Positions 4,742 through 18,944 of a stretch of 19,641 nucleotides of DNA are shown piece by piece. The stretch covers positions 1-19,641 of IMG/VR virus record IMGVR_UViG_2778261231_000016; one strand, given 5' to 3'. The position numbers were made by a program, and so were the translations under genes. Origin of the DNA: a virus (lineage: Duplodnaviria > Heunggongvirae > Uroviricota > Caudoviricetes). The notes under the pieces were generated by a model, which had not been told where the DNA came from, did not search any database, and was given only the letters and a program-made list of their open reading frames with translations. The stretch's first letter is position 1. Every line of letters begins with the position of its first letter.

Positions 4742-4785
4742 TGGTGGGCTGGCGGGAGTTGAACCCGCGTCCGAAATTCCTACAT
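4742..4785. repeat. att direct repeat: second copy of the ssrA 3' end (island boundary distal to ssrA)
   Basis: Seen: TGGTGGGCTGGCGGGAGTTGAACCCGCGTCCGAAATTCCTACAT at 4742-4785 matches 18582-18626 (the 3' end of ssrA, minus-strand gene) apart from a single missing A after TGGTGG. Identity stops after CCTACAT on both copies. Confidence 0.9.
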
Positions 4786-4980
4786 ACCATTTTTATTATA
4801 GTAAAAACAGTAGATTATGTTTGAAAACAATGTGTTAGTGTTATTTTGTATTTGCTCGTCTTACGCGTTTTTAATGCTCTGCCGCCAAAGTGCCGCCATT
4901 ACATCAAGCATCTAGAATAAAATTAGTTAATAAATTATAATTAATATGCTAATTGTTCTTGCATTCATAAGTGGGACGTG

Positions 4981-6714
4981 ATGAAAGAAAAAAAATTCGT
5001 TAGTGAGCTTTTCCTTGAAAATGGGCAGTTTATTTTAGTCGGTTTGACAGGTCGAACTGGTTCTGGTTGCACAACAACAGCTAATATTCTTGAAAACGAA
5101 AAAACAGTCTTCCCTGATGTAAGTAAATTACAGGGGTTTTACAAGGGATTGGATGTCCATCGTTATAATATAGTTAAAAAATTCGCAGAAAATCACTGGG
5201 AAAATTTTTACTCAATTAAGGTGAGTGACCTAATCTCAGCGTATCTTCTGATGTTAACAGTTGAGGAAGCTTCTGAATTCATTCTATCATCTAATAAATT
5301 TATCAGTAAAGGGCATTTAGATATTGTATTAACTTTTGGTGTATTCTCAGATAATCTCATTTTGACAAGATTTAAAAATGTAATTGAGAATTTGCTTGAT
5401 CATAATAGTGAATTGAAGCTTGATGAAAAAACGATTAATAAATTTATATCAATTTTGAAGTTAGTTAGAAAATTTACTAAAGAATTCAAAGCTGAACTAA
5501 ATGAGATAAACTCAAATTTATATGTTTCAGCCTATCAGTTAGCAGGTAAGTCAATTAGACGTCGTGGGCGTATTGAAGTCGATTTTGAAGATAAAGAGTT
5601 TATGCCTAAATCTGTTTTTCATTTGCCGGAAACTATTAATAGGGTTATTAAATTAATAAGAAAAAGCAAAAGAGATAACGCATTAATTGTCATAGATGCT
5701 ATTAGAAATCCATATGAGGCAAAATTTTTTAAGGATAGATATTCTGCATTTCATTTAATGTCAATAAATGCCCCAGATGAACATCGAACAAACTATTTGC
5801 GGAAACTACATAAGTTTTCAGAAAAGCAGATAGAGGAAATAGATTCTGTAGAGTCAGGTAAAGGTGATAACTCTTACAAACATCTCACCAATCCAAATGT
5901 AACTAAATGTATTGAACTATCAGATATACACATTTTTAACCCAAAAAATGAATTTGATAATGATAATATTTTAAAAGCACAATTAGCGTGGTACATCGCA
6001 CTGATGAAGCATCCTGGTCTGATAACACCTACTGCAATGGAAAGGGTTATGCAAGTTGCGTATACGGTAAAATTAAACTCTGGCTGTATATCTAGACAGG
6101 TGGGAGCTGTAGTAACTGATGGTGATAATTCAATAAAATCAGTTGGTTGGAATGATGTTGCCAACGGTCAGATTCCTTGCTCTATGAGATCTCTAGATGG
6201 CCTAATGAACGATTTTGATGAAAAAACGTACAGTCATTATGAGAGAAATAATAGTTCTTTCAGAATTAAAGCTAATGAGAAACTCTTAAATTTTAGGGCG
6301 ATAGATAAAACTGGTGATATTTATAGAGGCAGGAACTTATCTTATTGTTTTAAAGATATACATAATGATCTTGATAAAGAGAAAAAAGGTAATCAAGTTC
6401 ATACACGTGCATTACATGCTGAGGAAAACGCATTTTTACAACTTGCAAAATATGGTGGTATTGGCGTTCTTGGGGGGAAGTTGTATACAACTGCCAGTCC
6501 CTGTGAGTTGTGTGCGAAAAAAGCTTATCAGTTAGGTATATCTGAAATTGTATTTATTGATCCCTACCCAGGTATAGCTCAAGACCATATTATTAATATA
6601 GGTAGTAAGCCACCAAAGTTAATACAATTTAGAGGCGCAATTGGGAAGTCATATCACCGACTTTATGAGCAAATTATCCCGATAAAAGATGAGTTAGAAT
6701 ATCTCCTTGAGTAG
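4981..6714 (+). CDS. P-loop nucleotide-kinase-like domain fused to cytidine/dCMP-deaminase domain; AvcD/DcdV-like antiphage nucleotide-depletion enzyme (577 aa from ATG 4981; GTG at 4978 is an alternative start)
   Basis: Seen: P-loop G-L-T-G-R-T-G-S-G-C-T-T at 5041-5076 with Cys where the Walker-A Lys is expected; deaminase zinc motifs H-A-E at 6415-6423 and P-C-E-L-C at 6499-6513; very AT-rich compared with flanking phage genes. Established: this two-domain architecture is characteristic of AvcD/DcdV and the dCTP-deaminase defence proteins. Family assignment is from motif recognition only. Confidence 0.7.
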   Translation: MKEKKFVSELFLENGQFILVGLTGRTGSGCTTTANILENEKTVFPDVSKLQGFYKGLDVHRYNIVKKFAENHWENFYSIKVSDLISAYLLMLTVEEASEFILSSNKFISKGHLDIVLTFGVFSDNLILTRFKNVIENLLDHNSELKLDEKTINKFISILKLVRKFTKEFKAELNEINSNLYVSAYQLAGKSIRRRGRIEVDFEDKEFMPKSVFHLPETINRVIKLIRKSKRDNALIVIDAIRNPYEAKFFKDRYSAFHLMSINAPDEHRTNYLRKLHKFSEKQIEEIDSVESGKGDNSYKHLTNPNVTKCIELSDIHIFNPKNEFDNDNILKAQLAWYIALMKHPGLITPTAMERVMQVAYTVKLNSGCISRQVGAVVTDGDNSIKSVGWNDVANGQIPCSMRSLDGLMNDFDEKTYSHYERNNSSFRIKANEKLLNFRAIDKTGDIYRGRNLSYCFKDIHNDLDKEKKGNQVHTRALHAEENAFLQLAKYGGIGVLGGKLYTTASPCELCAKKAYQLGISEIVFIDPYPGIAQDHIINIGSKPPKLIQFRGAIGKSYHRLYEQIIPIKDELEYLLE

Positions 6715-6745
6715 AAATATTATACTCATCCTTCCTGAGGTAAGC

Positions 6746-6779
6746 TTCAAGATGATCAATAAATATTGATCATCTTGAA
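6746..6779. repeat. Perfect 15-bp inverted repeat with 4-nt loop (TTCAAGATGATCAAT aaat ATTGATCATCTTGAA)
   Basis: Seen directly, 32 nt downstream of the deaminase-fusion stop. Contains two GATC sites. No T-tract follows on either strand, so it is not a canonical intrinsic terminator. Confidence 0.8.
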
Positions 6780-7095
6780 AGTTAATTGCAGAGTCAAACT
6801 AGTAGTCAGACTGAAGCTTCGATAAAAAATGTTTTTGTTTTTTTTCATTTTCTAATGACTGTTTTTTATTGGTTTCTTTTTAATGTTGCAATGCTATGCT
6901 TTTCTACTATTTTTGAATGTGGCATCTTTGATGTTTTTATACAACAAAGATGAGGGCCTATAGGTTTTTTTGTGATGTAAAAATTATCTTATTCTATAAA
7001 TAAAACCTAAACTCAGTCTGAAGAGTTAAATGAGAATGGATAACCTGCTGAATATTATATTTGTAAATAGTTTGAGTTTGTTTTCATAAGTTACT

Positions 7096-8112
7096 CTATC
7101 TTAAGTTGCATAAAGGGTTTTTAGTTACCGCATCTTCAAGGTGATCGGGCGAAAAGTGGGCGTAAATCATCGTCATTTTTATATCGGCATGGCCCAGAAT
7201 ATCGCGCAGCACCAGTATGTTTCCGCCATTCATCATAAAATGGCTGGCGAATGTATGACGTAGCACGTGAGTGCATTGGCCCTCTGGCAGCTCGATGCCA
7301 GCTCGCTTTACTGCTCGTTCAAAGGCTTTTCTGCACGGGGTGAATAGCTTCCCTCTGTTCTTGGGGAGTTCGTCATACAGATCTTGAGATATCGGCACGG
7401 TGCGGTTTTTCTTACCCTTCGTCTTGGTATAAGTGATGCGGTATTTAGATAACTGATGGCCCTGCAGGTTTTCAGCTTCACTCCAGCGTGCGCCGGTGGC
7501 CAGGCATATTTTTGCAATCAAAAGCAGACTGGGGTTTTGAGAATCAGCGCAGGCATCTAGCAGACGTTTAATTTCTTCCGAGGTCAGGAACGCCAGTTCC
7601 CCCTCAGCGATTTTAAATGTTGGCAGCCCGGCGAGAGGATTTGGTGCTGACCAGTGGCCTAGTTTTTTCAATGTGCCGAAAACCGATGATAGGTTACGTT
7701 GCTCAAGATTCACCGTGCGTGGTTTTACTGGCGACATTAGTGTGCCGTCTTCGTTACGAACGTCACCTTTTAACCGTGCTTCGCGGTATTTCGTAAAGTC
7801 ACCGGCTGTCAGTTCTGAGGCGATGGGGTCGCCTAGACCATTACAGATAATTCTAAGTTTCGCCATGAGGCGCTTGGGGTCTGCGAGTGTCTGACCATAC
7901 AGGGAATACCAAAGCTCAATTAATTCTGATAGGCGTCGCCGATCATCCTTTTCACCCAACCACGGTTTTTTATTCACTTCTTCCATTGTGAAGCTTTCAA
8001 AAGCAATGGCTTCGCCTTTCGTAGCAAATTGCTTACGCACGCGCTTACCATTGCGTCCATTGGGATAGCACTCACACAACCATTTTCCGTTCGGCTGTTT
8101 TCTGATGGTCAT
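7096..8112 (-). CDS. int: P2/186-type tyrosine integrase (338 aa)
   Basis: Seen: N-terminus MTIRKQPNGKWLCECYPNGRNGKRVRKQF resembles the P2 Int N-terminus; C-terminal catalytic region has ...ATGARWSEA..., HVLRHTFASHF and ...IYAHF (tyrosine recombinase R/H-x-x-R/Y signature). Start abuts the cI stop. Confidence 0.95.
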   Translation of the reverse strand: MTIRKQPNGKWLCECYPNGRNGKRVRKQFATKGEAIAFESFTMEEVNKKPWLGEKDDRRRLSELIELWYSLYGQTLADPKRLMAKLRIICNGLGDPIASELTAGDFTKYREARLKGDVRNEDGTLMSPVKPRTVNLEQRNLSSVFGTLKKLGHWSAPNPLAGLPTFKIAEGELAFLTSEEIKRLLDACADSQNPSLLLIAKICLATGARWSEAENLQGHQLSKYRITYTKTKGKKNRTVPISQDLYDELPKNRGKLFTPCRKAFERAVKRAGIELPEGQCTHVLRHTFASHFMMNGGNILVLRDILGHADIKMTMIYAHFSPDHLEDAVTKNPLCNLR

Positions 8113-8113
8113 A

Positions 8114-8746
8114 TCAAAGGCTCTTAATGATTTTCAGTGCGCGGCCTACTACCTCAATGTCATCTAGGCCACATTCAAACGATGAATCATCCTGATGCAC
8201 TACTAATTTGTTTCCCGGAAGTCGAGTCAATTTAACAATGCTTTTTATCCCGTCAATATCGACTAACCACATACCATTTACTGGTGGTGTTTGGTTGCGA
8301 TCTATTAAATAAGAATCACCAGAAGTAGTCACCAGCAGTAGGTTGCTTGAGTCTGAGGGGAGTATGCTGCTATCAATGATTGCTTTTCCAGCATCGACCA
8401 ATAAACCACCGTTGAGAGTCGCCTTGTCAATTTCAGGAGATACTAGTTTAGAAAGAGGTACAACCTTGCTGGAGTTCACGGAATTGATATTTTTTTTAGG
8501 TTCAATGTTTGGACCTGGCTCCCCCTGTCCGGTGGTTAGCCACAGTAAAGAAACTCCTGTTTCCAAGGCGCACTGAATCACCCACTCTGCAGGAAAACTA
8601 TCTCTTAAGTATCTGTTTGCCATGGTGCTTTTTGATGCGCCTAAGTGATCGCAAAGTTGCTGTCTGGACTTGAAATCATAGGCTGCCATTAGTCTATGGA
8701 TAGCCTCTCTTCCCCCTGTATTCTCTCCAACCTTTACCTGTATCAT
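8114..8746 (-). CDS. cI: CI-type immunity repressor (186 CI-like, 210 aa)
   Basis: Seen: position immediately upstream of int on the same strand; HTH-like N-terminal region (KSRQQLCDHLGASKSTMANRYLRD); RBS AGGA 7 nt before ATG at 8746; faces an operator-containing intergenic region. Homology judged by eye. Confidence 0.8.
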   Translation of the reverse strand: MIQVKVGENTGGREAIHRLMAAYDFKSRQQLCDHLGASKSTMANRYLRDSFPAEWVIQCALETGVSLLWLTTGQGEPGPNIEPKKNINSVNSSKVVPLSKLVSPEIDKATLNGGLLVDAGKAIIDSSILPSDSSNLLLVTTSGDSYLIDRNQTPPVNGMWLVDIDGIKSIVKLTRLPGNKLVVHQDDSSFECGLDDIEVVGRALKIIKSL

Positions 8747-8758
8747 TTTTTAATCCTG

Positions 8759-8810
8759 TTGACGTATCAAATATTGGATCGTAGTATCTCGATGTATCAA
8801 ATATTGAATC
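8759..8810 (+). promoter_or_regulatory. Rightward lytic-type sigma70 promoter overlapping duplicated 17-bp operator-like repeats
   Basis: Seen: -35 TTGACG (8759-8764), 17-bp spacer, -10 TAGTAT (8782-8787). Direct repeats GTATCAAATATTGGATC (8764-8780) and GTATCAAATATTGAATC (8794-8810) lie 30 bp apart centre to centre, the first occupying the promoter spacer. Also tandem ATAAAACGA at 8813-8821 and 8823-8831. Confidence 0.55.
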
Positions 8811-8865
8811 AAATAAAACGAGATAAAACGACGTAAACCAAACCTTAATCGGGAGATACTGCACT

Positions 8866-9108
8866 ATGAGCACTGATATTTCAATTCGTGTACCAAAAGA
8901 GATGGCTACGCCTGCAGAGTTCGCGGAATGGGAAGGTATCTCCCGCGGCTCTGTGTATCAAAAAATTCATCATGGTCAGCTTGCTAAATACATGGTCAAG
9001 AAAGAAAAAAACAAAGGCCGCGTAAGCCTGCGTTATTTAATGTACAAAACCGATCAGGTCCGTGAATCCCTCGGTCATTCCAACTTCCGCGTCATTGTTG
9101 GTAAGTAA
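8866..9108 (+). CDS. Small HTH protein in the apl/cox position (putative excisionase / lytic-switch regulator, 80 aa)
   Basis: Seen: first gene downstream of the rightward promoter and divergent from cI; excisionase-like HTH segment TPAEFAEWEGISRGSVYQKIHHGQL; RBS GGGAGA upstream. Assignment by position and motif only. Confidence 0.45.
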   Translation: MSTDISIRVPKEMATPAEFAEWEGISRGSVYQKIHHGQLAKYMVKKEKNKGRVSLRYLMYKTDQVRESLGHSNFRVIVGK

Positions 9109-9140
9109 GTTCAATTATGAGAACTTTCTAAGGGGGTAGC

Positions 9141-9485
9141 ATGTTTGATTATAAGATTTCCAAACACCCGCATTTTGATGAAGCCTGTAGAGCTTTTGCA
9201 CTTCGTCACAATATGGCGAAGCTGGCAGAACGTTCAGGAATGAATGTCCAGACTCTGCGAAACAAACTCAACCCAGATCAACCGCATCAGCTCAATGCGC
9301 CAGATATCTGGCTACTTACCGATCTGACGGAAGATTCAACGCTGGTAGACGGTTTTCTGGCACAGATTCACTGCCTGCCATGTGTACCGATTAATGAGGT
9401 GGCAAAAGAGAAACTGCCACATTACGTCATGAGTGCAACCGCAGAGATCGGGCGTGTTGCTGCAGGTGCGGTACCGGTTTTCTAA
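9141..9485 (+). CDS. cII: Phage CII-family regulatory protein, apparently C-terminally truncated (114 aa)
   Basis: Seen: RBS AAGGGGG before ATG; N-terminal region MFDYKISKHPHFDEACRAFALRHNMAKLAERSGMNVQTLRNKLNP matches my recollection of 186-type CII proteins. Those are ~165-170 aa by memory, and here the ORF stops right at the junction with the tail-fibre stub. Confidence 0.65.
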   Translation: MFDYKISKHPHFDEACRAFALRHNMAKLAERSGMNVQTLRNKLNPDQPHQLNAPDIWLLTDLTEDSTLVDGFLAQIHCLPCVPINEVAKEKLPHYVMSATAEIGRVAAGAVPVF

Positions 9486-9871
9486 AATATAACGGAGCGT
9501 CATTCAACAAGGCAATGTATCCCAAACTTGCACAAATTTTCCCGTCAGGAGTATTACTTGATTTGCGCGGCGTATTTATTCGAGGCTGGGATGATGGAAA
9601 AGGGATTGATGCCGGGCGTGCAATACTGACACAGCAGCAGGATGCCCAGCAAAATATCACCGGCATGGTTTCTGATATGACAGTCGGCGTAAATGCTGAC
9701 GGAACAGGTGCATTTAGTATGGTCGATTTAACTACATCAGGCATTTCGGCAGGTGCACTAAATTCTTTTTATCAAAAGCATATTTATCTGGATTCCTCCA
9801 GAGTGGTCAGAACGGCAACTGAAAACCGTCCGGTAAATATCGCATTCAACTACATTGTGAGGGCTGCATAA
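9486..9871 (+). pseudogene. Tail-fibre (H-like) C-terminal remnant, 5'-truncated
   Basis: Seen: frame is open from just after the cII stop; translation contains the tail-fibre collar-like motif ...NGASFNKAMYPKLAQIF...LRGVFIRGWDDGKGIDAGRA...; no N-terminal fibre domain or proper start; stop overlaps the G start (TAATG at 9869-9873). Confidence 0.65.
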
Positions 9872-10458
9872 TGATGAACGCAGATTTAGCCATTTTAGAG
9901 AACGGTATTGCGACAACCGCCGGATGGATAACGATATATAACTATTCGGCGGTTACAGGTGAATATCTTGACAGCAACAGTGAATACATTCCAGAAGGTG
10001 TTGGATTGCCTGCGCTGGCAACAGATATTGAACCGCCGAACAGACCGGACGGTCAGGCTGTTATCTGGCAGGGTTCGTGGATACTGATGGATGACTGGCG
10101 GGGTGAAACGGTTTATTCCATTTTTGATGGTTCTGCCAGTATCGTGGATTACCTCGGGGCAATCGCAGAGGGATATACACAACAGAAACCCGCAACCCGT
10201 TTTGATAAATGGGATGGTAAGCAGTGGGTGACTGATACTGACGCGCGAAATACGGAAGCTGTTGCAGTTTCTACGCAACAGAAAGCTGCATTGCTGGCTG
10301 AAGCCACCGCGACCATAGCACCGCTTCAGGATGCAAAAGACGGAGGTTATATTGATGATGCTGATATTCCGATGTTGATTTCTTGGCAAAAATATCGCTA
10401 CGCGCTGACTAAAGTTAATCCTAAAACTCCTGTTTGGCCCAGCAAACCAAGTGTATAA
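9871..10458 (+). CDS. Tail-fibre assembly protein (P2 G-like, 195 aa)
   Basis: Seen: start overlaps the upstream fibre stop as in P2 H/G; 195-aa product in the expected position before the G-FI accessory slot. Similarity to gpG-type chaperones judged by eye. Confidence 0.8.
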   Translation: MMNADLAILENGIATTAGWITIYNYSAVTGEYLDSNSEYIPEGVGLPALATDIEPPNRPDGQAVIWQGSWILMDDWRGETVYSIFDGSASIVDYLGAIAEGYTQQKPATRFDKWDGKQWVTDTDARNTEAVAVSTQQKAALLAEATATIAPLQDAKDGGYIDDADIPMLISWQKYRYALTKVNPKTPVWPSKPSV

Positions 10459-10470
10459 ATGGTAATATAA

Positions 10471-10505
10471 AAGGCAGTTCACTCTATGATGAACTGCCTT
10501 TTATA
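10471..10505. terminator. Bidirectional stem-loop between convergent G and the 110-aa cargo ORF
   Basis: Seen: AAGGCAGTTCA (10471-10481), 8-nt loop, TGAACTGCCTT (10490-10500), followed by TTTAT on the plus strand and TTATATT on the minus strand. Confidence 0.6.
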
Positions 10506-10524
10506 ACGAGCATCAAAATATAGA

Positions 10525-10857
10525 TTATTTACCAAACAAAGAAACTATGTTGACTGCGACTGTGGTGATATCAGTCGCAGGTTTTAGCCATTTACTGATT
10601 TCATACTTGTCAAGGATTGAAGGGTACTCACTTGCTTCAACTGTTTTCAATTGATGTGCCGCTTGATTAATGTTTTCAAGTGGCGCGCCGGGAATGAAAT
10701 TTTCTTCTAGAAAGCTTTTTTGGCTTTCATATATTGATATCGCCTCGCCATTTCCAGAAAAAGTAGTTTCTTTAAAAACTAACTCTGTACACTCTGGTGC
10801 TCGAACTCCAATCGTATTATTAATAAAAGTACAACCCTCGAAAGTATGCTTACCCAT
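10525..10857 (-). CDS. Hypothetical protein (110 aa), AT-rich cargo in the G-FI (P2 Z/fun-equivalent) slot
   Basis: Seen: ATG at 10855-10857, stop followed by the stem-loop above; opposite orientation to all flanking late genes; markedly lower GC than neighbours; no recognisable motif, no signal peptide or obvious TM segment. Confidence 0.6.
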   Translation of the reverse strand: MGKHTFEGCTFINNTIGVRAPECTELVFKETTFSGNGEAISIYESQKSFLEENFIPGAPLENINQAAHQLKTVEASEYPSILDKYEISKWLKPATDITTVAVNIVSLFGK

Positions 10858-11032
10858 TTTTAGATTTTACCTTGGTTGCGTAGTGAAACCATTAGTTTAC
10901 ATCTTTCACCAGTAGCAATAAAAATGATGGTTAAGAATTGAGACGAGTATCACTGAACTATACATGCTGACCAAAGGAACCTTTCAAAGAATTTAAATGC
11001 GCTGCTAACGATCATTTTTCGTCAATATCAAT

Positions 11033-11050
11033 TGTGCTATTTCCCACACA
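11033..11050 (+). promoter_or_regulatory. Candidate Ogr-dependent late-promoter element (TGT-N12-ACA) upstream of the FI operon
   Basis: Seen: TGTGCTATTTCCCACACA at 11033-11050, ~75 nt upstream of the FI ATG. Established: P2 late promoters carry a TGT-N12-ACA dyad centred near -55 recognised by Ogr. Single motif match, so moderate confidence. Confidence 0.45.
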
Positions 11051-11124
11051 TAGCCCACTACGTGCGCCGCGTGCATATCAACCAGAACATAGGCACACCC
11101 CCTGTAAACCGGAGAGACTGCCTT

Positions 11125-12297
11125 ATGGCTCAGGATTACCACCACGGGGTGCGCGTTGTTGAAATCAACGAGGGCACCCGATCCATTACCACGGTGAGCA
11201 CCGCCATCGTGGGCATGGTCTGCACCGGCGATGATGCTGATGCGTCCATGTTTCCCCTCAATAAGCCGGTCCTGCTGACCGATGTGCTGACTGCCAGCGG
11301 TAAAGCGGGCGAGTCCGGCACGCTGGCCCGTTCGCTGGATGCGATTGCAGACCAGGCTAAACCCGTGACCGTCGTTGTGCGCGTGGCACAGGGCGAAACC
11401 GAAGCGGAAACAACCTCCAACATTATCGGCGGCGTAACTGCTGACGGTAAAAAAACGGGTATGAAAGCGCTGCTTTCGGCGCAGTCGCAGTTGGGCGTCA
11501 AGCCGCGCATTCTCGGCGTGCCGGGGCATGACACGCAAGCGGTTGCCACTGAGCTGCTGAGCGTGGCGCAGAGCCTGCGCGGGTTTGCCTACCTGTCCGC
11601 TTATGGCTGCAAAACGGTAGAAGAAGCGATTGCCTACCGTGACAATTTCAGCCAGCGCGAGGGGATGCTGATCTGGCCTGACTTCATCAACTTTGACACC
11701 GTGCTGAATGCCGACGCGACGGCTTACGCCTCCGCCCGTGCGCTCGGCCTGCGCGCCAAAATTGACGAGCAGACCGGCTGGCACAAAACCCTGTCCAACG
11801 TGGGCGTGAACGGCGTTACCGGCATTTCCGCTGATGTGTTCTGGGATCTGCAGGACCCGGCAACCGATGCGGGACTACTGAACCAGAACGACGTCACCAC
11901 GCTTATCCGCAAAGATGGCTTCCGCTTCTGGGGTTCCCGCTGCCTCAGTGACGATCCTCTGTTTGCCTTTGAGAACTACACCCGCACGGCGCAGGTGCTG
12001 GCTGACACCATCGCAGAAGCGCACATGTGGGCGGTGGATGGCGTACTCAACCCGTCGCTGGCCCGTGACATTATCGAAGGTATTCGGGCCAAGCTGTGCA
12101 GCCTGAAAACACAGGGCTACATCATCGGCGCAGACTGCTGGCTGGATGAGTCGGTGAACGATAAAGACTCCCTGAAAGCCGGGAAACTCACTATCGACTA
12201 CGACTACACGCCGGTGCCGCCGCTTGAAAACCTGATGCTGCGCCAGCGCATCACCGATCAGTACCTGCTGGATTTCTCCAGCCAGGTCAGCGCGTAA
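11125..12297 (+). CDS. Contractile tail sheath protein (P2 FI homologue, 390 aa)
   Basis: Seen: RBS GGAGAG 8 nt upstream; N-terminus [35 protein letters not shown] closely matches P2 FI (MSDYHHGVQVLEINEGTR...). The ORF-track start at 11032 is an upstream in-frame extension I do not believe. Confidence 0.95.
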
Positions 12298-12306
12298 GGG
12301 GACACC

Positions 12307-12822
12307 ATGGCTTTACCACGCAAGTTAAAACACCTGAACCTGTTCAACGACGGGAACAACTGGCAGGGGATCGTTGAGTCTCTGACCCTGCCGAAATTCA
12401 CCCGCAAGTTTGAGAAGTATCGCGGCGGCGGTATGCCGGGCGCGGTGGACGTGGACATGGGGCTGGATGACGGCGCACTGGACACGGAATTTTCAATCGG
12501 CGGCACCGAACTGCTGTTATTTAAGCAGATGGGCAAGGCCACGGTTGACGGAATCCAGCTGCGTTTCACCGGCTCCATTCAGCGTGACGATACCGGCGAA
12601 GTGCAGGCCGTTGAGCTGGTTGTGCGCGGGCGTCATAAAGAAGTGGATTCCGGCGAGTGGAAAACCGGCGAGAGCAGCACCACCAAAGTCAGCAGCACCA
12701 ACAGCTACGCGAAGCTGACCATTAACGGCGAAGTGCTCTATGAGGTCGATCTGGTCAACATGGTTGAAATCGTTGACGGCGTGGACCTGATGGAAGAACA
12801 CCGTAACGCCCTCGGCCTCTGA
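12307..12822 (+). CDS. Tail tube protein (P2 FII homologue, 171 aa)
   Basis: Seen: immediately follows FI with RBS AAGGGG; size and position as P2 FII. Confidence 0.93.
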   Translation: MALPRKLKHLNLFNDGNNWQGIVESLTLPKFTRKFEKYRGGGMPGAVDVDMGLDDGALDTEFSIGGTELLLFKQMGKATVDGIQLRFTGSIQRDDTGEVQAVELVVRGRHKEVDSGEWKTGESSTTKVSSTNSYAKLTINGEVLYEVDLVNMVEIVDGVDLMEEHRNALGL

Positions 12823-12876
12823 TTAACCTTAACGGCGCGGGAAGCCGCGCCAGTATTTCATTAACAGGAAACGAAC

Positions 12877-13179
12877 ATGAGCGACAAGCTGACTGAAAAG
12901 ACCGTAAAACTGGATACCCCCATCATGCGCGGTAAAACTGAAATTACCGAAATTGTGCTGCGCAAGCCGCAGTCCGGCGCACTGCGTGGCACCCGTCTGC
13001 AGGCCATTATGGATATGGACGTGGGCGCGATGATGACTGTGATCCCGCGAATCTCCACTCCGACGCTGACCGCGCAGGAAATGGCAGAGCTGGACCCCGC
13101 CGATCTGACAGCAATGGCTGTAGAGGTGGTGACTTTTTTGTTGCCGAAGTCGGTGCTTGCCGATTTGCCGACAACCTGA
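12877..13179 (+). CDS. Tail assembly chaperone (P2 E homologue, zero-frame product, 100 aa)
   Basis: Seen: RBS AGGAAA; position between the tube and tape-measure genes; contains the slippery heptamer TTTTTTG (13135-13141) near its 3' end. Confidence 0.85.
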   Translation: MSDKLTEKTVKLDTPIMRGKTEITEIVLRKPQSGALRGTRLQAIMDMDVGAMMTVIPRISTPTLTAQEMAELDPADLTAMAVEVVTFLLPKSVLADLPTT

Positions 13180-13313
13180 CGGTTGATGATCTGGTGGCAG
13201 ATATTGCCACCATCTTTCACTGGTCGCCGTCCATCACTGACGTTATGCCGCTGACTGAGGTGCTGGAATGGCGGCATAAGGCAATTCAGCGAAGCGGGGC
13301 CAGCGATGAGTGA
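12877..13313 (+). CDS. E+E' fusion made by programmed -1 frameshift at TTTTTTG (about 13135-13141); E' frame ends at TGA 13311-13313
   Basis: Seen: the -1 frame after the slippery site is open to 13313 and overlaps the tape-measure start (13306). Established: the P2 FETUD operon makes E+E' by -1 frameshifting at this kind of site. The exact shift codon is not determinable by eye. Confidence 0.65.
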
Positions 13314-16083
13314 TAATAACCTGCGTCTGCAGGTGGTTTTGGGGGCGGTTGACAAGTTAACCCGCCCTTTTAAAAATGCCCAGGCTGGCTCAAAAGAGCT
13401 GGCAGCGGCAATCCGGCAGACCCGCGACCAGCTTAAGCAACTGAGCGATGCGGGAGGCCAGTTAAAATCCTTCGACCAGCTATCGCAAAGCGTGCGCCGT
13501 ACAGGTGCAGAGCTGGATCAGACGAGACTGCGCGCGCAGATGATGACGCGCGAAATGTCATCTTTGGAATCCCCAACAAAAAAACAAACTCAGGCGCTTG
13601 AAGCTCAGTGGCGTGCTGTTGCACGTCTTGAGCAAAAGCAGAAACAGGAAACAAACCAGCTATCTGCAGTAAGGGGGGAGCTTTACAGGCTGGGGTTATC
13701 TGCTGGGGGCGGAGCGCGGGAAACCGCCAGAATTACCCGTGAAACTGAGAAGTATAACCAGAAGCTGGCAGAGCAGGAGCGCAGGCTGCGCGAGGTTGGC
13801 GAGCGTCAGCGAAAGCTCAACGCTATCAAAGCCAAGGCTGAAAAGACCCGTGAGTTAAGGAACTCTCTGGCAGGTAATGGTGCAGGGGAGATGGCGGCTG
13901 GGGTAGCTACTGGCATGACGTTATTGGCTCCAGTAAAAGCCTATTCTGAATCTGAAAATGCCGCTAATCAGCTCGCCGGTTCAATGATGGGGCCGGGCGG
14001 AAAGGTCGCACCTGAATTTGAGAAAATTAACCAGCTGGCGGTAGCGCTTGGAGACAGGCTGCCGGGAACCACTGCAGATTTCCAGAACATGATGACAATG
14101 CTGCGTCGTCAGGGGATGTCAGCACAGGTCATTCTTGGCGGGCTGGGGGAATCGGCGGCTTATCTGGGGGTGCAGTTGCAGATGGCTCCCACTGCTGCGG
14201 CTGAGTTTGCCGCAAAATTGCAGGATGCAACACAGACCTCAGAAAAAGACATGATGAGCCTGATGGATCTGATCCAGAAGGGTTTTTATGCCGGTGTTGA
14301 CTCAGGGAATATGCTGCAGGGATTTTCTAATATCAGCAGCGCCATGAGCATTATTAATCAAAAAGGGATTGAAGCAGCTAAAACTTTTGCTCCGTTGCTG
14401 GTGATGGCTGATCAGAGCGGGATGGCTGGTGAGTCTGCAGGTAATGCTTACCGAAAAATTTTCCAGGCAGCGCTGGATTCAAAAAATATTCAGTCAGTCA
14501 ACGACGATCTGAAAGGCACCGGTATCAACTTCAATTTTTCCAATGGTAAAGGTGGATTCGGCGGGCTGGAAAATATGTACGCCCAGCTGGAAAAGCTTAG
14601 TAAGCTCAACGATGAAACCCGGATGGCAACGATTAAGGATCTGTTCGGTAATGATGCGGAAGTCATGAAAGTCCTTAACACCATGATTGAAAAAGGTATT
14701 AATGGATATCGTGAAACTACCGCCAAACTTGAAAATCAGGCTTCACTGCGGGAACGCGTCGATGCGTCCCTGAATACCCTGGGTAATAAATGGGAAGCCG
14801 CTACAGGTTCCTTTACCAATGCTATGGCTAGTATCGGTGAAACAGTTGCCCCAACATTAAAGAAGCTGGCTGACTGGTTGGGTGAACTGGCTTCGCGTCT
14901 GGATGGTTTTGTTAAACGACACCCACAATTGACCTCAGCGCTGTTTAAGCTGGCAGCTGGCTTTGCCATTGTTGCCACCGCCGCTGGGGTTGTTTCACTG
15001 GCGCTGGCGTCCGTGTTAGGGCCGATGGCAGTAGTGCGAATGAGCGCAGGGGTGATGGAGCTAAAATTTTCATCTGCATTTGGTCTTATTGGGAAAGCAA
15101 TCAGTTCTGTTGGCAAGTCAGTTATATGGCTGGGCCGATTGATGTTTGCAAATCCTATACTGGCTGTCATTGGGCTGATCGCCGCTGGTGCTATTTATAT
15201 CTGGCAGAACTGGGACACGCTTGGACCAAAATTCAAGGCAATGTGGGATGCCGTATGTAATGCCACAAGTACGGCATGGGATTGGATTAAAGAGAAGGCC
15301 AGCGCCGCATGGGAGGGGATTAAGTCACTGTTCTTTAATTATACCTTGCCGGGATTAATAGCTAAAAATTGGGATGCAATAAAAACTGGCGTTTCTGAAG
15401 CGTGGGCCAATATCAGACAATCTATTAGTGATAAATGGAATTCGATCCTGGCTGATGTTGCCGCGCTTCCTGCGAAGTTTCAGGACATGGGCAGCGCCAT
15501 TATTGACAGCATTCTCGATGGAATTAATGCCAAATGGGAGACACTCAAAAGCAAGCTTTCCTCAGTCACAGATTATCTGCCTGACTGGATGACCGGAAAT
15601 AATAAAACACAAGACAAAGCACAGGTGCAGGTGGTTGGTGGAGCAGCGGCTGCTGCCGTTCCGTTTGCCGGGATGTATGACAGTGGTGGGATTATTCCGC
15701 GCGGTCAGTTCGGTATTGTTGGAGAGAACGGCCCTGAAATTGTGAACGGCCCCGCAAATGTGACCAGCAGGCGGCGCACTGCCGCGCTGGCTTCCGTCGT
15801 TGCAGGTGTCATGGGCGTAGCGGCAGCGCCTGCAGAGGCTGCTCCACTACATCCTTACAGTCTGCCTACTGTGGCATATAAACAAAGCCAGCCTGCGAAA
15901 TCTGCCAGCGCGCCGCCAGTGATGCACTTTGAAACTCACGCGCCGATCACTATCTATGCTCAGCCAGGGCAGAGTGCACATGATATTGCCCGTGAAGTTG
16001 CCCGACAGCTTGACGAACGCGAGCGCAAGACCAGGGCTAAAGCACGCAGTAATTTCAGTGATCAAGGGGGATATGAATCATGA
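13306..16083 (+). CDS. Tail tape measure protein (P2 T homologue, 925 aa)
   Basis: Seen: long coiled-coil-rich N-terminal half (Q/E/R/K/A-rich), hydrophobic central segments; located between E/E' and U; stop overlaps the U start. Confidence 0.95.
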   Translation: MSDNNLRLQVVLGAVDKLTRPFKNAQAGSKELAAAIRQTRDQLKQLSDAGGQLKSFDQLSQSVRRTGAELDQTRLRAQMMTREMSSLESPTKKQTQALEAQWRAVARLEQKQKQETNQLSAVRGELYRLGLSAGGGARETARITRETEKYNQKLAEQERRLREVGERQRKLNAIKAKAEKTRELRNSLAGNGAGEMAAGVATGMTLLAPVKAYSESENAANQLAGSMMGPGGKVAPEFEKINQLAVALGDRLPGTTADFQNMMTMLRRQGMSAQVILGGLGESAAYLGVQLQMAPTAAAEFAAKLQDATQTSEKDMMSLMDLIQKGFYAGVDSGNMLQGFSNISSAMSIINQKGIEAAKTFAPLLVMADQSGMAGESAGNAYRKIFQAALDSKNIQSVNDDLKGTGINFNFSNGKGGFGGLENMYAQLEKLSKLNDETRMATIKDLFGNDAEVMKVLNTMIEKGINGYRETTAKLENQASLRERVDASLNTLGNKWEAATGSFTNAMASIGETVAPTLKKLADWLGELASRLDGFVKRHPQLTSALFKLAAGFAIVATAAGVVSLALASVLGPMAVVRMSAGVMELKFSSAFGLIGKAISSVGKSVIWLGRLMFANPILAVIGLIAAGAIYIWQNWDTLGPKFKAMWDAVCNATSTAWDWIKEKASAAWEGIKSLFFNYTLPGLIAKNWDAIKTGVSEAWANIRQSISDKWNSILADVAALPAKFQDMGSAIIDSILDGINAKWETLKSKLSSVTDYLPDWMTGNNKTQDKAQVQVVGGAAAAAVPFAGMYDSGGIIPRGQFGIVGENGPEIVNGPANVTSRRRTAALASVVAGVMGVAAAPAEAAPLHPYSLPTVAYKQSQPAKSASAPPVMHFETHAPITIYAQPGQSAHDIAREVARQLDERERKTRAKARSNFSDQGGYES

Positions 16084-16565
16084 TGATGGTGCTGGGGTTA
16101 TATGTCTTTATGCTGCGTACAGTGCCATATCAGGAGCTGCAGTATCAGCGAAGCTGGCGACACGCCGCCAACAGTCGGGTGAACCGGCGACCATCAACGC
16201 AGTTTCTTGGCCCGGGTAATGACTCGCTGACCTTATCTGGCGTACTGCTGCCGGAAGTCACCGGGGGCAGGCTGTCATTGCTCGCGCTGGAGCAAATGGC
16301 AGAGCTGGGCAAAGCATGGCCTCTGATTGAGGGAAGCGGGACCATTTACGGCATGTTTGTGATCGAGAGCCTGAGTCAGACAAAAACAGAGTTTTTTGAA
16401 AGCGGAATGCCTCGCCGTATTGAGTTTACGCTGACCCTGAAAAGGGTTGATGAGTCGCTGTCTGATATGTTCGGCAGTCTCAGCGATCAGCTCAGTAACC
16501 TGCAGGACTCTGCAACGTCTGCGATAGGTAATATTAAAAATACGGTTGGAGGGTTGCTGCAGTGA
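16080..16565 (+). CDS. Tail protein U homologue (161 aa)
   Basis: Seen: N-terminus MMMVLGLYVFMLRTVPYQELQ...LSLLALEQMAELGKAWPLIEGSGTIYGMFVIESL closely resembles P2 gpU; ATGATGATG start overlaps the T stop. Confidence 0.9.
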   Translation: MMMVLGLYVFMLRTVPYQELQYQRSWRHAANSRVNRRPSTQFLGPGNDSLTLSGVLLPEVTGGRLSLLALEQMAELGKAWPLIEGSGTIYGMFVIESLSQTKTEFFESGMPRRIEFTLTLKRVDESLSDMFGSLSDQLSNLQDSATSAIGNIKNTVGGLLQ

Positions 16566-17662
16566 ATTTTAGCTCTGATCTTTTTGACCTGAACAGCAAA
16601 AGCCCGGCTTTCAGTATCGTCATTGAAGGTAAGGACGTGACGACCGTGCTGGATACCCGCCTGATGAGTCTGACGCTGACGGATAACCGGGGCTTTGAAG
16701 CGGACCAGCTTGATCTGGAGCTGGACGACGCCGACGGGCTGATCGCCCTGCCGCGACGTGGGGCAGTGATTCAGCTAGCGCTGGGCTGGAAAGGCCAGCC
16801 GCTTTTCCCTAAAGGGGCTTTTACCGTGGATGAAATTGAACACAGCGGTGCCCCTGACCGGCTGACCATCAGGGCGCGTAGCGCAGATTTCCGTGAAACC
16901 CTCAATACACGGCGCGAAAAATCATGGCATCAGACAACGGTGGGGGAGGTGGTAAAGGAAATAGCCGCCCGGCATAACCTCAAAATGGCGCTGGGCAAAG
17001 ACCTGACGGATAAGGCGCTGGATCATCTGGACCAGACCAATGAAAGCGATGCAAGTTTTCTGATGAAACTGGCGAGACAGTATGGGGCGATTGCTTCCGT
17101 TAAGGACGGGAATCTGCTGTTTATCCGGCAGGGACAGGGAAGAACGGCGAGCGGCAAGCCGCTGCCGGTTATCACCATCACGCGCAAAGCCGGTGACGGT
17201 CATCGGTTCACCCTTGCTGATCGTGGTGCCTATACCGGTGTTATTGCCAGCTGGTTGCATACGCGTGAACCCAGGAAAAAAGAGACAACCAGTGTTAAGC
17301 GTCGTCGAAAGAAAACCACCACACCCAAAGAGCCGGAAGCAAAACAGGGCGATTATCTGGTGGGAACGGATGAAAACGTGCTGGTTCTTAATCGTACCTA
17401 CGCCAACCGGAGAAATGCAGAGCGCGCAGCAAAAATGCAGTGGGAACGTCTGCAGCGTGGGGTTGCTTCATTTTCCCTGCAGCTCGCTGAGGGGCGTGCT
17501 GATCTCTATACGGAAATGCCGGTGAAGGTTACAGGGTTTAAGCAGCCGATCGATGATGCAGAATGGACCATTACCACCCTGGCGCATTCTGTCAGCCCGG
17601 ATAATGGATTTACAACCAGCATGGAGCTTGAAGTAAAGATTGATGATTTAGAAATGGAATAA
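16562..17662 (+). CDS. Tail protein D homologue (late control gene D-type, 366 aa)
   Basis: Seen: GTG start with RBS GGAGGG 8 nt upstream, overlapping the U stop; size and position as P2 gpD. Confidence 0.92.
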   Translation: MNFSSDLFDLNSKSPAFSIVIEGKDVTTVLDTRLMSLTLTDNRGFEADQLDLELDDADGLIALPRRGAVIQLALGWKGQPLFPKGAFTVDEIEHSGAPDRLTIRARSADFRETLNTRREKSWHQTTVGEVVKEIAARHNLKMALGKDLTDKALDHLDQTNESDASFLMKLARQYGAIASVKDGNLLFIRQGQGRTASGKPLPVITITRKAGDGHRFTLADRGAYTGVIASWLHTREPRKKETTSVKRRRKKTTTPKEPEAKQGDYLVGTDENVLVLNRTYANRRNAERAAKMQWERLQRGVASFSLQLAEGRADLYTEMPVKVTGFKQPIDDAEWTITTLAHSVSPDNGFTTSMELEVKIDDLEME

Positions 17663-17729
17663 ATAAGTTCTTAATATTGATTCTTTGTGTATCATTATTG
17701 AGATTTTAATGGTGACGGAGAATAAAAAA

Positions 17730-17948
17730 ATGATGAATTGCCCAAAGTGTGGACATGCGGCGCACACCCGGAGCAGCTTTCAGGTTACTGATAGCACGAA
17801 GGAGCGTTACTGCCAGTGCCAGAACATTAATTGCGGCAGCACATTTGTCACCCATGAAACGGTTGTACGATTTATCGTTACCCCGACAATAATCAATAAT
17901 GCCCCGCCGCACCCTACGCCGGGTGGTCAAGGGCACATGAATTTTTAA
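17730..17948 (+). CDS. ogr: Ogr late-gene transcriptional activator (C4 zinc finger, 72 aa)
   Basis: Seen: MMNCPKCGHAAHTRSSFQVTDSTKERYCQCQNINC... matches P2 Ogr (MFHCPLCQHAAHARTSRYITDTTKERYHQCQNVNC...) in length and Cys spacing; RBS GGAG 9 nt upstream of ATG 17730. The ORF-track start at 17685 is a TTG extension. Confidence 0.93.
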   Translation: MMNCPKCGHAAHTRSSFQVTDSTKERYCQCQNINCGSTFVTHETVVRFIVTPTIINNAPPHPTPGGQGHMNF

Positions 17949-17954
17949 AACAAG

Positions 17955-17978
17955 AACCTGCTGCGGCAGGTTTTTTAT
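17955..17978. terminator. Bidirectional intrinsic terminator between convergent ogr and the BRCT-domain gene
   Basis: Seen: AACCTGC-tgcg-GCAGGTT followed by TTTTTT (17971-17976) on the plus strand; on the minus strand the hairpin is followed by TTCTTGTTTTAAAAAT. Confidence 0.65.
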
Positions 17979-18457
17979 GCGTCAGGAATTTCACCCGTTT
18001 CTATAAAATGAACAAAACTTTCTTCATCAATGATGATCGTACCCTTCATGCGTGCAGCATTTACTTTGGAAGGGCCAGCATTGTATCCGCAACAGAGCAT
18101 CTGCAGATTTTGAGTAACGGAACTTCTCACTGTCATGCTGTGCGCTTCGGCAACTTCAATCAAACGCTCTTTATCTGCCTTTTTGAAACCTGTAAAACAG
18201 ACGTCAAAAGTGAGGGTTTTGGGCTTGGTGGCCTTGGTTAGATGGATGTAATTTTCCGGTAGGAAGGACTGACAGGCTTGCTGTGCTTCATCAGCAGATG
18301 TGCATTCTTGAAGTATTCTATCTTTACGAAACGTTCTTATTGAATGGGTTGATTGGCATATACCCTGAATGTGGTTATCGCTGTAGCTAACACTGCTTAT
18401 TGAATGGGCACCAATGCGCGCATTCGCATTGATGTAAACAAAGTGCATTTCTTCCAT
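17975..18457 (-). CDS. BRCT-domain protein of unknown function (160 aa from ATG 18455-18457)
   Basis: Seen: C-terminal ~80 aa (TLTFDVCFTGFKKADKERLIEVAEAHSMTVRSSVTQNLQMLCCGYNAGPSKVNAARMKGTIIIDEESFVHFIETG) fits the BRCT pattern of NAD-ligase-type BRCT domains; strong RBS AAGGTGA 6 nt before the internal ATG. The ORF-track start at 18544 would overlap the ssrA terminator and is rejected. Confidence 0.65.
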   Translation of the reverse strand: MEEMHFVYINANARIGAHSISSVSYSDNHIQGICQSTHSIRTFRKDRILQECTSADEAQQACQSFLPENYIHLTKATKPKTLTFDVCFTGFKKADKERLIEVAEAHSMTVRSSVTQNLQMLCCGYNAGPSKVNAARMKGTIIIDEESFVHFIETGEIPDA

Positions 18458-18545
18458 GTGAATCACCTTTATTACACAAACGGTTAAGACGTTATGAACG
18501 GTGGGCAAATTGGCTGCCGCCATTTTGCCGCCACAGCCAAACAAA

Positions 18546-18579
18546 AAGGGGTTACGTTTTCACGTAACCCCTTGTTTTA
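18546..18579 (-). terminator. ssrA intrinsic terminator (stem GGGGTTACG / CGTAACCCC)
   Basis: Seen: hairpin immediately 3' of the tmRNA CCA end on the minus strand, followed by TTTTTGT (minus strand). Confidence 0.75.
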
Positions 18580-18581
18580 TT

Positions 18582-18944
18582 TGGTGGAGCTGGCGGGAGT
18601 TGAACCCGCGTCCGAAATTCCTACATCCTCGGTACTACATGCTTAGTCAGTCTTTACATTCGCTTGCCAGCTGCGGACGGACACGCCACTAACAAACTAG
18701 CCTGATTAAGTTTTAACGCTTCAACCCCAGGCAGGGCTTCCACGCGATCTCTTTTGGGTTTGACCTCTCTTGATCCCCGTCCTAAGAGCGGAGGCTAGGG
18801 AGAGAGGGCTCTAAGCAGGTTATTAAGCTGCTAAAGCGTAGTTTTCGTCGTTTGCGACTATTTTTTGCGGCTTTTTACGAGGCCAACCGCCCCTCGGCAT
18901 GCACCTTGGGTTTCGCAAATCCCGTCGAATCCAGAATCAGCCCC
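18582..18944 (-). ncRNA. ssrA: tmRNA (SsrA), 363 nt
   Basis: Seen: reverse complement begins GGGGCTGATTCTGGATTCGACGGGATTTGCG... and ends ...GGGTTCAACTCCCGCCAGCTCCACCA; contains the tag reading frame GCAAACGACGAAAACTACGCTTTAGCAGCTTAA (ANDENYALAA stop). Matches E. coli ssrA from memory. Confidence 0.97.

Follow-up and report, generated by a model that had tools for sequence, protein, structure and literature searches.

We consider it very probable that the window (the whole stretch of 19,641 nucleotides analysed here) carries a canonical P2-family recoding cassette, in which the tail genes E and E' are joined by a programmed -1 frameshift, and that this cassette is intact because the deletion that produced the surrounding prophage remnant is recent, and not through selection of the signal in the host. 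The frameshift signal of P2 type is already known, and the finding is correct but ordinary: a textbook signal in its expected place, within a prophage fragment that has had no time to decay, carries little weight by itself.

The E/E+E' cassette and its likeness to P2

The cassette is made up of the following features.

12877..13179, plus strand: E-like tail assembly chaperone ORF, 100 aa, zero frame (Pfam PF10109 Phage_TAC_7, E 6e-18)
13134..13140, plus strand: slippery heptamer T_TTT_TTG, the putative -1 shift site, with phase and position as in the annotated P2 frameshift site
13140..13313, plus strand: E' extension, 57 codons plus TGA, -1 frame (Pfam PF06528 Phage_P2_GpE)

The E-like ORF is flanked by the tube gene FII and the tape-measure gene T, and its protein is identical to E of the Escherichia coli ET650 prophage. 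The earlier note had described a TTTTTTG near the end of this ORF at 13135-13141. The heptamer is present, but a direct reading of the sequence places it at 13134-13140 on the plus strand, one base to the left of that position. Its phase within the E-like ORF 12877-13179 is T_TTT_TTG, that is X_XXY_YYZ (E-frame codons GTG GTG ACT TTT TTG TTG CCG, plus strand), and the E stop follows 39 nt downstream. From 13140 the -1 frame runs through 57 sense codons (VAEVGACRFADNLTVDDLVADIATIFHWSPSITDVMPLTEVLEWRHKAIQRSGASDE) before it is closed by TGA at 13311-13313; since the tape-measure ATG is at 13306, the end of E' overlaps T by 8 nt, and the -1 frame is thus open to that TGA and overlaps the tape-measure start, as had been claimed. 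The fused product E+E' corresponds to 12877..13140 joined to 13140..13313 and has 145 aa, with the predicted junction peptide ...VVTFLVAEVGACR.

The bare motif is of little value, as TTTTTTG occurs 10 times in the window against 7.7 expected and 49 of 200 shuffled sequences reach 10 copies. The argument is therefore carried by its phase, position and homology. The genes of the window contain 31 in-frame XXXYYYZ heptamers; the one at 13134-13140 is followed by the longest stretch of open -1 frame (57 codons), and the -1 frames of the other two that lie at most 40 nt from a gene end have just 6-7 codons.

Translation of the -1 frame and alignment of the product with P2 gave a clear result. The fused protein matches PF10109 over residues 9-88 and PF06528, 'Phage P2 GpE', over residues 107-142 (E 4e-18), with 65 bits for each family, above the curated cut-offs of both (23 for PF06528). 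In BLASTP it aligns with P2 gpE+E' over 139 residues with zero gaps, at 50% identity (E 2e-50), and the gapless alignment spans the shift point (...VVTFLVAEVGA... against ...VVGFLVAELGA...). The E' part is approximately 58% identical to P2 E', as counted by hand from the alignment. The similarity of the -1 frame product to P2 E' is thus confirmed, and so is the assignment of the whole to the P2 type of recoding cassette, given the PF06528 match on the E' frame and the lack of gaps to P2 gpE+E' at the junction. A tblastn search of the fused protein against a phage collection returned two-piece matches in 57 of 60 among the matches listed, as expected from a change of frame; the other three were short and partial. 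Searches of NCBIfam and of the PDB sequences found no match and no relative, respectively, for fused E+E'.

The resemblance to P2 (NC_001895, P2p25/P2p26) extends to the gene order, which is FII, E/E', T, U, D and ogr in both, and to a T_TTT_TTG in the same phase, a 57-codon E' and an 8-nt overlap with T (in the P2 locus E+E' ends at position 858 and T starts at 851). The RefSeq record of P2 gives E+E' as a two-piece join and marks the homologous heptamer as the 'site of -1 translational frameshift'; equivalent notes are found in the records of Fels-2 and 186. P2 differs in the distance from shift site to E stop, 21 nt against 39 nt in the window, and in the length of E, 91 aa against 100 aa; it also lacks the hairpin predicted 6 nt downstream in the lineage of the window, whose cassette, unlike that of P2, stands in a non-viable remnant. 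Fels-2, with ET650 the closest relative, encodes a P2 gpE-like pair (STM2699/STM2697.1) whose fused product is 96% identical to that of the window, and it is also located at ssrA; both Fels-2 and ET650 are full-length at about 33 kb and have head, lysis and baseplate genes, unlike the 13.9-kb element of the window. In 186 the corresponding pair, orf51/orf52 (gene H), has the same heptamer and a 57-codon E', its record notes a probable frameshift, and its immunity region, of the CI/Apl/CII type, corresponds to the one in the window; the sequence of 186 is more distant and its att site is a tRNA-Ile gene.

At the sequence level, the cassette of the window has all the features that define the P2 E/E+E' cassette and is competent for the shift; that shifting takes place, and how efficiently, we infer. 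Ribosomes translating E would meet T_TTT_TTG, where tRNA-Phe (on UUU) and tRNA-Leu (on UUG) would slip one base back in a minority of passes, and a slipped ribosome would read 57 further codons in the -1 frame. E (100 aa) and E+E' (145 aa) would thus be made at a fixed ratio. If lambda gpG/gpGT is a guide, the tape-measure protein T may be bound by both products, and the tube protein may be recruited by the E' part. In P2, Christie and colleagues reportedly found in 2002 a shift frequency of about 10%, and their fusion-protein and complementation data are said to favour the fusion; the same work reportedly saw no sequence similarity between the tail proteins of P2 and lambda. A conserved frameshift in tail chaperones is said to have been described by Xu, Hendrix and Duda in 2004. 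P2 produces its 91-aa E and a 142-aa E+E' via TTTTTTG (PMC3091744). The lambda pair, with a role as tail assembly chaperones (PMC5009743), follows the same logic of two overlapping ORFs between the major tail and tape-measure genes, a -1 shift close to where the first ORF ends and a fixed short:long ratio (PMC5009743, PMC3091744), in a siphovirus tail and not the myovirus tail considered here.

The remnant probably does not express any of this. It contains CI, and we found no antirepressor gene in it; therefore its tail operon is probably silent.

Conservation of the site and routes to the fused protein

We read the homologous spot in P2, 186, Fels-2, ENT90, FSL SP-004, Serratia KSP20, Burkholderia phiE12-2, Ralstonia YO136_2, Pseudomonas phiCTX, Acidovorax Acica, Shewanella M16-3, Vibrio MAR, Mannheimia phiMhaA1, an unverified gut phage and the remnant ECL27977, a Fels-2-like relative from E. 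coli. An in-phase slippery heptamer is present in the same place in all 15 lineages read. In 13 of them it is T_TTT_TTG, situated 21-66 nt ahead of the E stop and followed by a -1 ORF of 55-74 codons with the motif ADIAxxFHWxP...EL..WR..A..R; these 13 represent Escherichia, Salmonella and Erwinia as well as Serratia, Burkholderia, Ralstonia, Pseudomonas, Acidovorax, Shewanella and the gut phage. The exceptions are the Vibrio phage, with T_TTT_TTC, and the Mannheimia phage, which has in the same place another classical slippery heptamer, G_GGA_AAG. The slippery site of lambda is also G_GGA_AAG. Conservation of the P2 frameshift site among Burkholderia P2-like phages has been described, as has the lack of a downstream structure in P2 (PMC3091744).

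Among 80 close relatives in IMG/VR, the offset of the heptamer is unchanged in 79, which also share the lengths of E (100 aa) and E' (57 codons); in the remaining one the E start was missed by the search pattern. Across 60 unique close-relative sequences of the 437-nt cassette, the heptamer with its flanks, CTTTTTTGTTG, is invariant, while 70% of the third codon positions of the E-only part vary. In the E' part, read in the -1 frame of the same 60 sequences, the variable fractions of codon positions 1, 2 and 3 are 19%, 14% and 47%, a third-position bias that, as a pattern of substitution, is the signature of a translated -1 frame.

Three sequence elements around the shift site and upstream of E deserve description.

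13123..13128, plus strand: Shine-Dalgarno-like GAGGTG, candidate stimulator from its sequence, 5 nt 5' of the heptamer
13147..13166, plus strand: predicted hairpin of 8 bp, AAGUCGGU-GCUU-GCCGAUUU, 6 nt 3' of the heptamer
12834..12851, plus strand: GC-rich terminator-like hairpin in the FII-E spacer

All eight pairs of the hairpin at 13147-13166 are preserved in 15 unique Fels-2-like variants, solely via one-sided changes among A-U, G-U and G-C. In its 45-nt context the hairpin is not significant (z -0.8), and its region codes in two frames, so that its conservation proves little. P2 and the other lineages have no counterpart of it, and when 12 lineages were folded no downstream structure proved to be shared or significant (z -1.3 to +1.4). 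Fels-2-like phages, unlike P2, may use this hairpin to stimulate the shift. Equivalents of the Shine-Dalgarno-like element, (G/A)AGGTG or GGAGGT, are found in Fels-2, P2, 186 and Acica and are absent from phiE12-2, KSP20 and the Shewanella phage; the GAGGTG at 13123-13128 also codes for the conserved residues (E/K)-V-V. The hairpin at 12834-12851 has the position of tI, the partial terminator annotated in 186 between the tube and chaperone genes. An Rfam scan of the window matched tmRNA alone.

Two other routes could account for the E' frame. It might be a separate 39-aa protein initiated at GTG 13194, for which no frameshift would be needed, and annotation appears to agree: PGAP lists a 39-aa 'GpE family phage tail protein' on close relatives, and a 120-nt gene stands at the homologous position in PGAP and in the gene calls of the source contig. 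But E' has no credible start of its own, as the candidates GTG 13194, ATG 13245 and GTG 13260 all lack a Shine-Dalgarno sequence; read in the -1 frame, the 18 codons from the heptamer to 13194 (VAEVGACRFADNLTVDDL) show conservation relative to P2 (VAELGAVTFPKNLSVDDL), upstream of any such start; and the P2 record annotates a join with a -1 shift. We regard a separate E' as very improbable. Alternatively, the fusion might arise from slippage of RNA polymerase on the T6 run, with a 1-nt deletion in some transcripts, and not from slippage of the ribosome. The site is a homopolymer, and sequence alone cannot tell apart two routes to the same protein. Against this, every T-run site (14 lineages and the window) consists of six T, no more and no fewer, in X_XXY_YYZ phase with G or C as the next base, and one lineage has the non-homopolymeric G_GGA_AAG in the same place. 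For RNA polymerase to slip efficiently in bacteria, a run of about 8-9 or longer is generally required. Polymerase slippage is thus highly improbable, and ribosomal frameshifting at T_TTT_TTG is the reading that we adopt.

Anatomy, age and selection of the remnant

The element that contains the cassette occupies 4748-18626 (13.9 kb), is flanked by perfect 38-nt direct repeats and is inserted in the 3' end of ssrA. Its landmarks and the remaining tail genes are as follows.

4748..4785, strand not applicable: attL, 38-nt direct repeat of the ssrA 3' end, 100% identical to 18589-18626
9473..9474, strand not applicable: deletion junction from cII to the C-terminal variable part of a tail-fibre gene; homology to intact cII ends at 9473
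11125..12297, plus strand: FI tail sheath, 390 aa, full length (Pfam sheath domains; 1173 nt, as in ET650 and Fels-2)
12307..12822, plus strand: FII tail tube, 171 aa, full length (Pfam PF04985, E 8e-61; length as in relatives)
13306..16083, plus strand: T tape measure, 925 aa (Pfam PF10145; length as in ET650)
16080..16565, plus strand: U-like tail gene, 161 aa, full length (Pfam PF06995; length as in relatives)
16562..17662, plus strand: D-like baseplate hub/late control gene, 366 aa, full length (Pfam PF05954; 1101 nt, as in ET650)
17730..17948, plus strand: ogr/B-like late activator with Ogr/Delta zinc finger, 72 aa (Pfam PF04606, E 1e-20; 219 nt, as in ET650 and P2)
18582-18944, minus strand: tmRNA gene ssrA (Rfam)
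18589..18626, strand not applicable: attR, 38 nt within the ssrA 3' end, repeat of 4748-4785

The left part carries int, CI, an apl-like gene and an anti-phage dCTP deaminase (NCBIfam NF041025, at 426 bits where the cut-off is 400), and cII, cut after nt 333 of 510. At the junction the sequence reads GCGGTA/CCGGTTTTC (the slash marks the breakpoint), and the translation downstream of it (...GFLKYNGASF...) is about 40% identical to the C-terminal segments of tail fibres in relatives. Also between the repeats are the last ~130 codons of this tail-fibre gene, a fibre-assembly gene and an AT-rich stretch, and in the right part the tail operon is accompanied by ogr and a small BRCT-like ORF. Among the ORFs between the att repeats we found no replication, head, lysis, baseplate (V, W, J, I) or tail-completion (R, S, X) genes, all of which are present in the full-length ssrA-site prophages of E. 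coli ET650 and VG888-46E9. The element is accordingly a remnant without baseplate and capsid genes, as the earlier note had it, and the same note was right that FI, FII, T, U, D and ogr are intact; E is as well, and all are full length, with lengths equal to those of the ET650 prophage. The remnant does not have the full gene set of a functional P2-like (Peduoviridae) prophage, nor is it an R-type tailocin, having no baseplate and no lysis genes, and a fibre represented by a ~130-codon C-terminal stub plus the assembly gene.

The remnant is chimeric. The left arm, as far as 9473, shares 99.8% identity with the corresponding region of VG888-46E9, and the tail operon is closest to that of ET650 (95.5%); the tape-measure gene of VG888 differs in length. 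This fits a deletion across tandem prophages, an arrangement seen in ET734, or an earlier recombination.

Several observations bear on the age of the deletion. A contig of assembly GCA_002545375.1 matches the window at 100% identity over 19,485 nt. The truncated cII product is reported in just six contigs, and the three that we read have 0 or 1 mismatch with the window in the overlaps; two of these three carriers, both assemblies from the read archive, overlap the window over ~8 kb, ending inside E, 5' of the heptamer. The 437-nt E-E' cassette is 100% nucleotide-identical to that of the full-length ET650 prophage and of three IMG/VR contigs of 25-37 kb. Comparison with 19-35 relatives per gene showed 3 substitutions private to the window in ~3.8 kb of tail genes. 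All three are nonsynonymous, which could hint at relaxed constraint, with n=3 too few to test. The simplest reading is a recent deletion, with too little time for decay; its youth we infer from a few near-identical carriers, and an older, sparsely sampled clone would look alike.

The earlier note had proposed that the tail module was either recently inactivated or under selection. The first half of this alternative is favoured by the near-identical carriers and the three private substitutions; the second has no support, the cassette being equal to that of intact prophages. Selection by the host would mean that the tail module, with a working E/E+E' shift, is kept as something useful, which could be a domesticated partial tail, a tailocin component, or a reservoir that rescues, recombines with or provides tail parts to incoming P2-like phages or satellites. 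Such a role would agree with seven tail-operon ORFs that are all full length, with the retention of ogr and of a late-promoter-like TGT-N12-ACA at 11033-11050, and with low pN/pS values against relatives (0.07-0.11). However, a comparison of the tail module with intact relatives, which gave a tail-gene pN/pS of 0.07 against ET650, records evolution in the phage era and therefore gives no support for selection after the deletion, from which nearly zero divergence has accumulated. Moreover, V, W, J, I, R, S, X and the lysis genes are gone, as is most of H, and without them neither a tail nor a tailocin can be built. Other remnants, sisters at the same ypjA-ssrA locus, show tail genes deleted or broken: ECL27977 keeps FI-ogr with a frameshifted and shortened T, in HH107 cII is joined to mid-T with loss of FI-E and half of T, and in FDAARGOS_1337 a replication gene is joined to mid-D and everything before mid-D is lost. 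This varying loss of tail genes shows no consistent retention of the module. Host selection is consequently very unlikely, and the proposal that the retained signal indicates selection does not survive, with the cassette identical to that of a full-length prophage and tail genes lost or broken in sister remnants. Recent deletion within a Fels-2/186-like prophage remains our preferred explanation.

Annotation of the cassette and a recurrent breakpoint in cII

Automatic pipelines separate E' as a 39-aa gene rather than annotate a join. In ET734, the position of the heptamer shows T4 and the E gene is marked as frameshifted. Homopolymer errors of long reads can erase the T6 run, and an intact site is hence a useful check of assembly quality and not a sign of function or selection.

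Examination of related elements showed that the left end of the deletion is recurrent. Intact cII reads ...GCAGGTGCGGTA/TCTGGCGATG at this point (the slash marks the breakpoint). Five 186/Fels-2-like E. coli remnants break within 4 nt of it and are joined there to different partner sequences; their cargo, int and CI genes differ and several are at different att sites. One other sampled remnant is broken elsewhere.

We considered and rejected two origins for the junction. A Hin/Gin-type invertase finds no support, as the breakpoint lies ~75 nt past the crossover sites of relatives and the cII side is unlike such a site. Nor is there support for a secondary nick site of the replication protein A, since the hotspot resembles neither the nick site in the P2 ori nor the VG888 equivalent. 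A literature search for a known cII deletion hotspot returned nothing relevant.

The partners joined to the cII breakpoint are the tail-fibre tip in the window, an IS66 fragment in ECL27977, mid-T in HH107 (with 4-nt microhomology), gene A at ~nt 1300 in C41(DE3)/BL21, and gene A at ~nt 275 in A21005-2. A fixed left end, variable right ends and microhomology together suggest a site-specific nick, break or fork stall at this position in cII.

A recurrent breakpoint in cII and the make-up of the remnant

In five independent 186/Fels-2-like prophage remnants of E. coli, the element in the window among them, the cII gene is cut within 4 nt of the point that follows GCAGGTGCGGTA, making this position a recurrent deletion breakpoint. 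The cut maps as follows, the last four positions being in retrieved comparison loci with coordinates of their own:

Window 9473/9474: cII nucleotide 333
L097, about 7520
L099, about 8992
L185, about 3134
L186, about 3134

The left end is constant among these remnants and the right end differs, the partners joined to the cut gene being a tail-fibre tip, an IS66 fragment, the middle of the tape measure and two different places within replication gene A. The junctions carry microhomology of 2-6 nt. We checked two possible origins of the breakpoint, an invertase site and a nick site of the A protein, and neither found support.

To the right of the cut, the window element continues with a segment of about 1.5 kb:

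9474-11025: tail-fibre C-terminal stub, fibre-assembly gene and an AT-rich stretch

The AT-rich stretch holds an ORF of 110 aa on the minus strand with a weak beta-helix match. Neither the 5,426 complete E. coli genomes searched nor the phage collection contained near-identical DNA to this segment, and its protein-level identity to relatives is only about 40%.

The arms on either side of this segment differ in affinity (4748-9473 versus 11026-17949), and the remnant is a chimera. The full prophage region of E. coli VG888-46E9 matches its left arm at 99.8% identity, while the nearest relative of its tail operon, within the right arm, is the prophage of E. coli ET650 (95.5%); the tape-measure gene of VG888 itself is unlike that of the remnant in length. 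These mixed affinities suggest either a deletion across tandem prophages or recombination at an earlier date. A tandem arrangement of ogr and int is present in the comparison assembly ET734.

Cargo slots at the two ends of the element

Genes of variable identity occupy both ends of the element:

4978-6714, plus strand: anti-phage dCTP deaminase (NCBIfam NF041025, above cut-off)
17975-18457, minus strand: small ORF between ogr and attR, weakly similar to NAD-dependent ligase at the ligase's BRCT end

The deaminase gene lies inside the element, with attL on one side and int on the other. Since the sister prophages of ECL27977 and HH107 carry unrelated hypothetical genes in this position, the attL-int interval is a variable cargo slot. 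The ogr-attR interval is a second one: a 483-nt homologue of its ORF is labelled 'BRCT domain-containing' by RefSeq in ECL27977 and hypothetical protein in other strains, and ET650 has another gene, of 384 nt, at this position.

Possible regulatory motifs and hairpins

Two motifs and two hairpins were noted in the element:

8761-8810, plus strand: 20-nt repeat GACGTATCAAATATTGGATC, two copies, 90% alike, spacing 30 nt
11033-11050, plus strand: TGT-N12-ACA, about 75-90 nt 5' of the FI start
12834-12851, plus strand: GC-rich hairpin GGCGCGGGAAGCCGCGCC in the FII-E spacer
13147-13166, plus strand: predicted 8-bp hairpin, 6 nt 3' of the slippery site

The repeats, flanked by CI and an apl-like gene, probably serve the immunity switch as operators or as binding repeats of the Apl type. 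The sequence also reads TGT-N12-ACA, a motif of low information content and a candidate for the Ogr/B-dependent late promoter element, which takes this dyad form in P2-like phages. In phage 186 the annotated partial terminator tI occupies the position of the FII-E hairpin, a terminator-like structure that would hold E-T-U-D expression below that of sheath and tube. The predicted hairpin following the slippery site is preserved in all 15 Fels-2-like variants solely through one-sided changes; P2 and other lineages lack it, and taken alone the hairpin is not significant.

Annotation of E and E'

Both PGAP and the gene calls give E' as a stand-alone gene (39 aa, 'GpE family') rather than joining it to E through the frameshift. 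Pitfalls in the annotation of E/E' occur in three comparison loci:

L001, 14167-14286
L002, 9850-10148
L180, 14054-14173

The ET734 assembly reads T4 in place of the T6 run and labels E a pseudogene; many of its genes are marked 'frameshifted', and the T4 reading is probably a homopolymer error.
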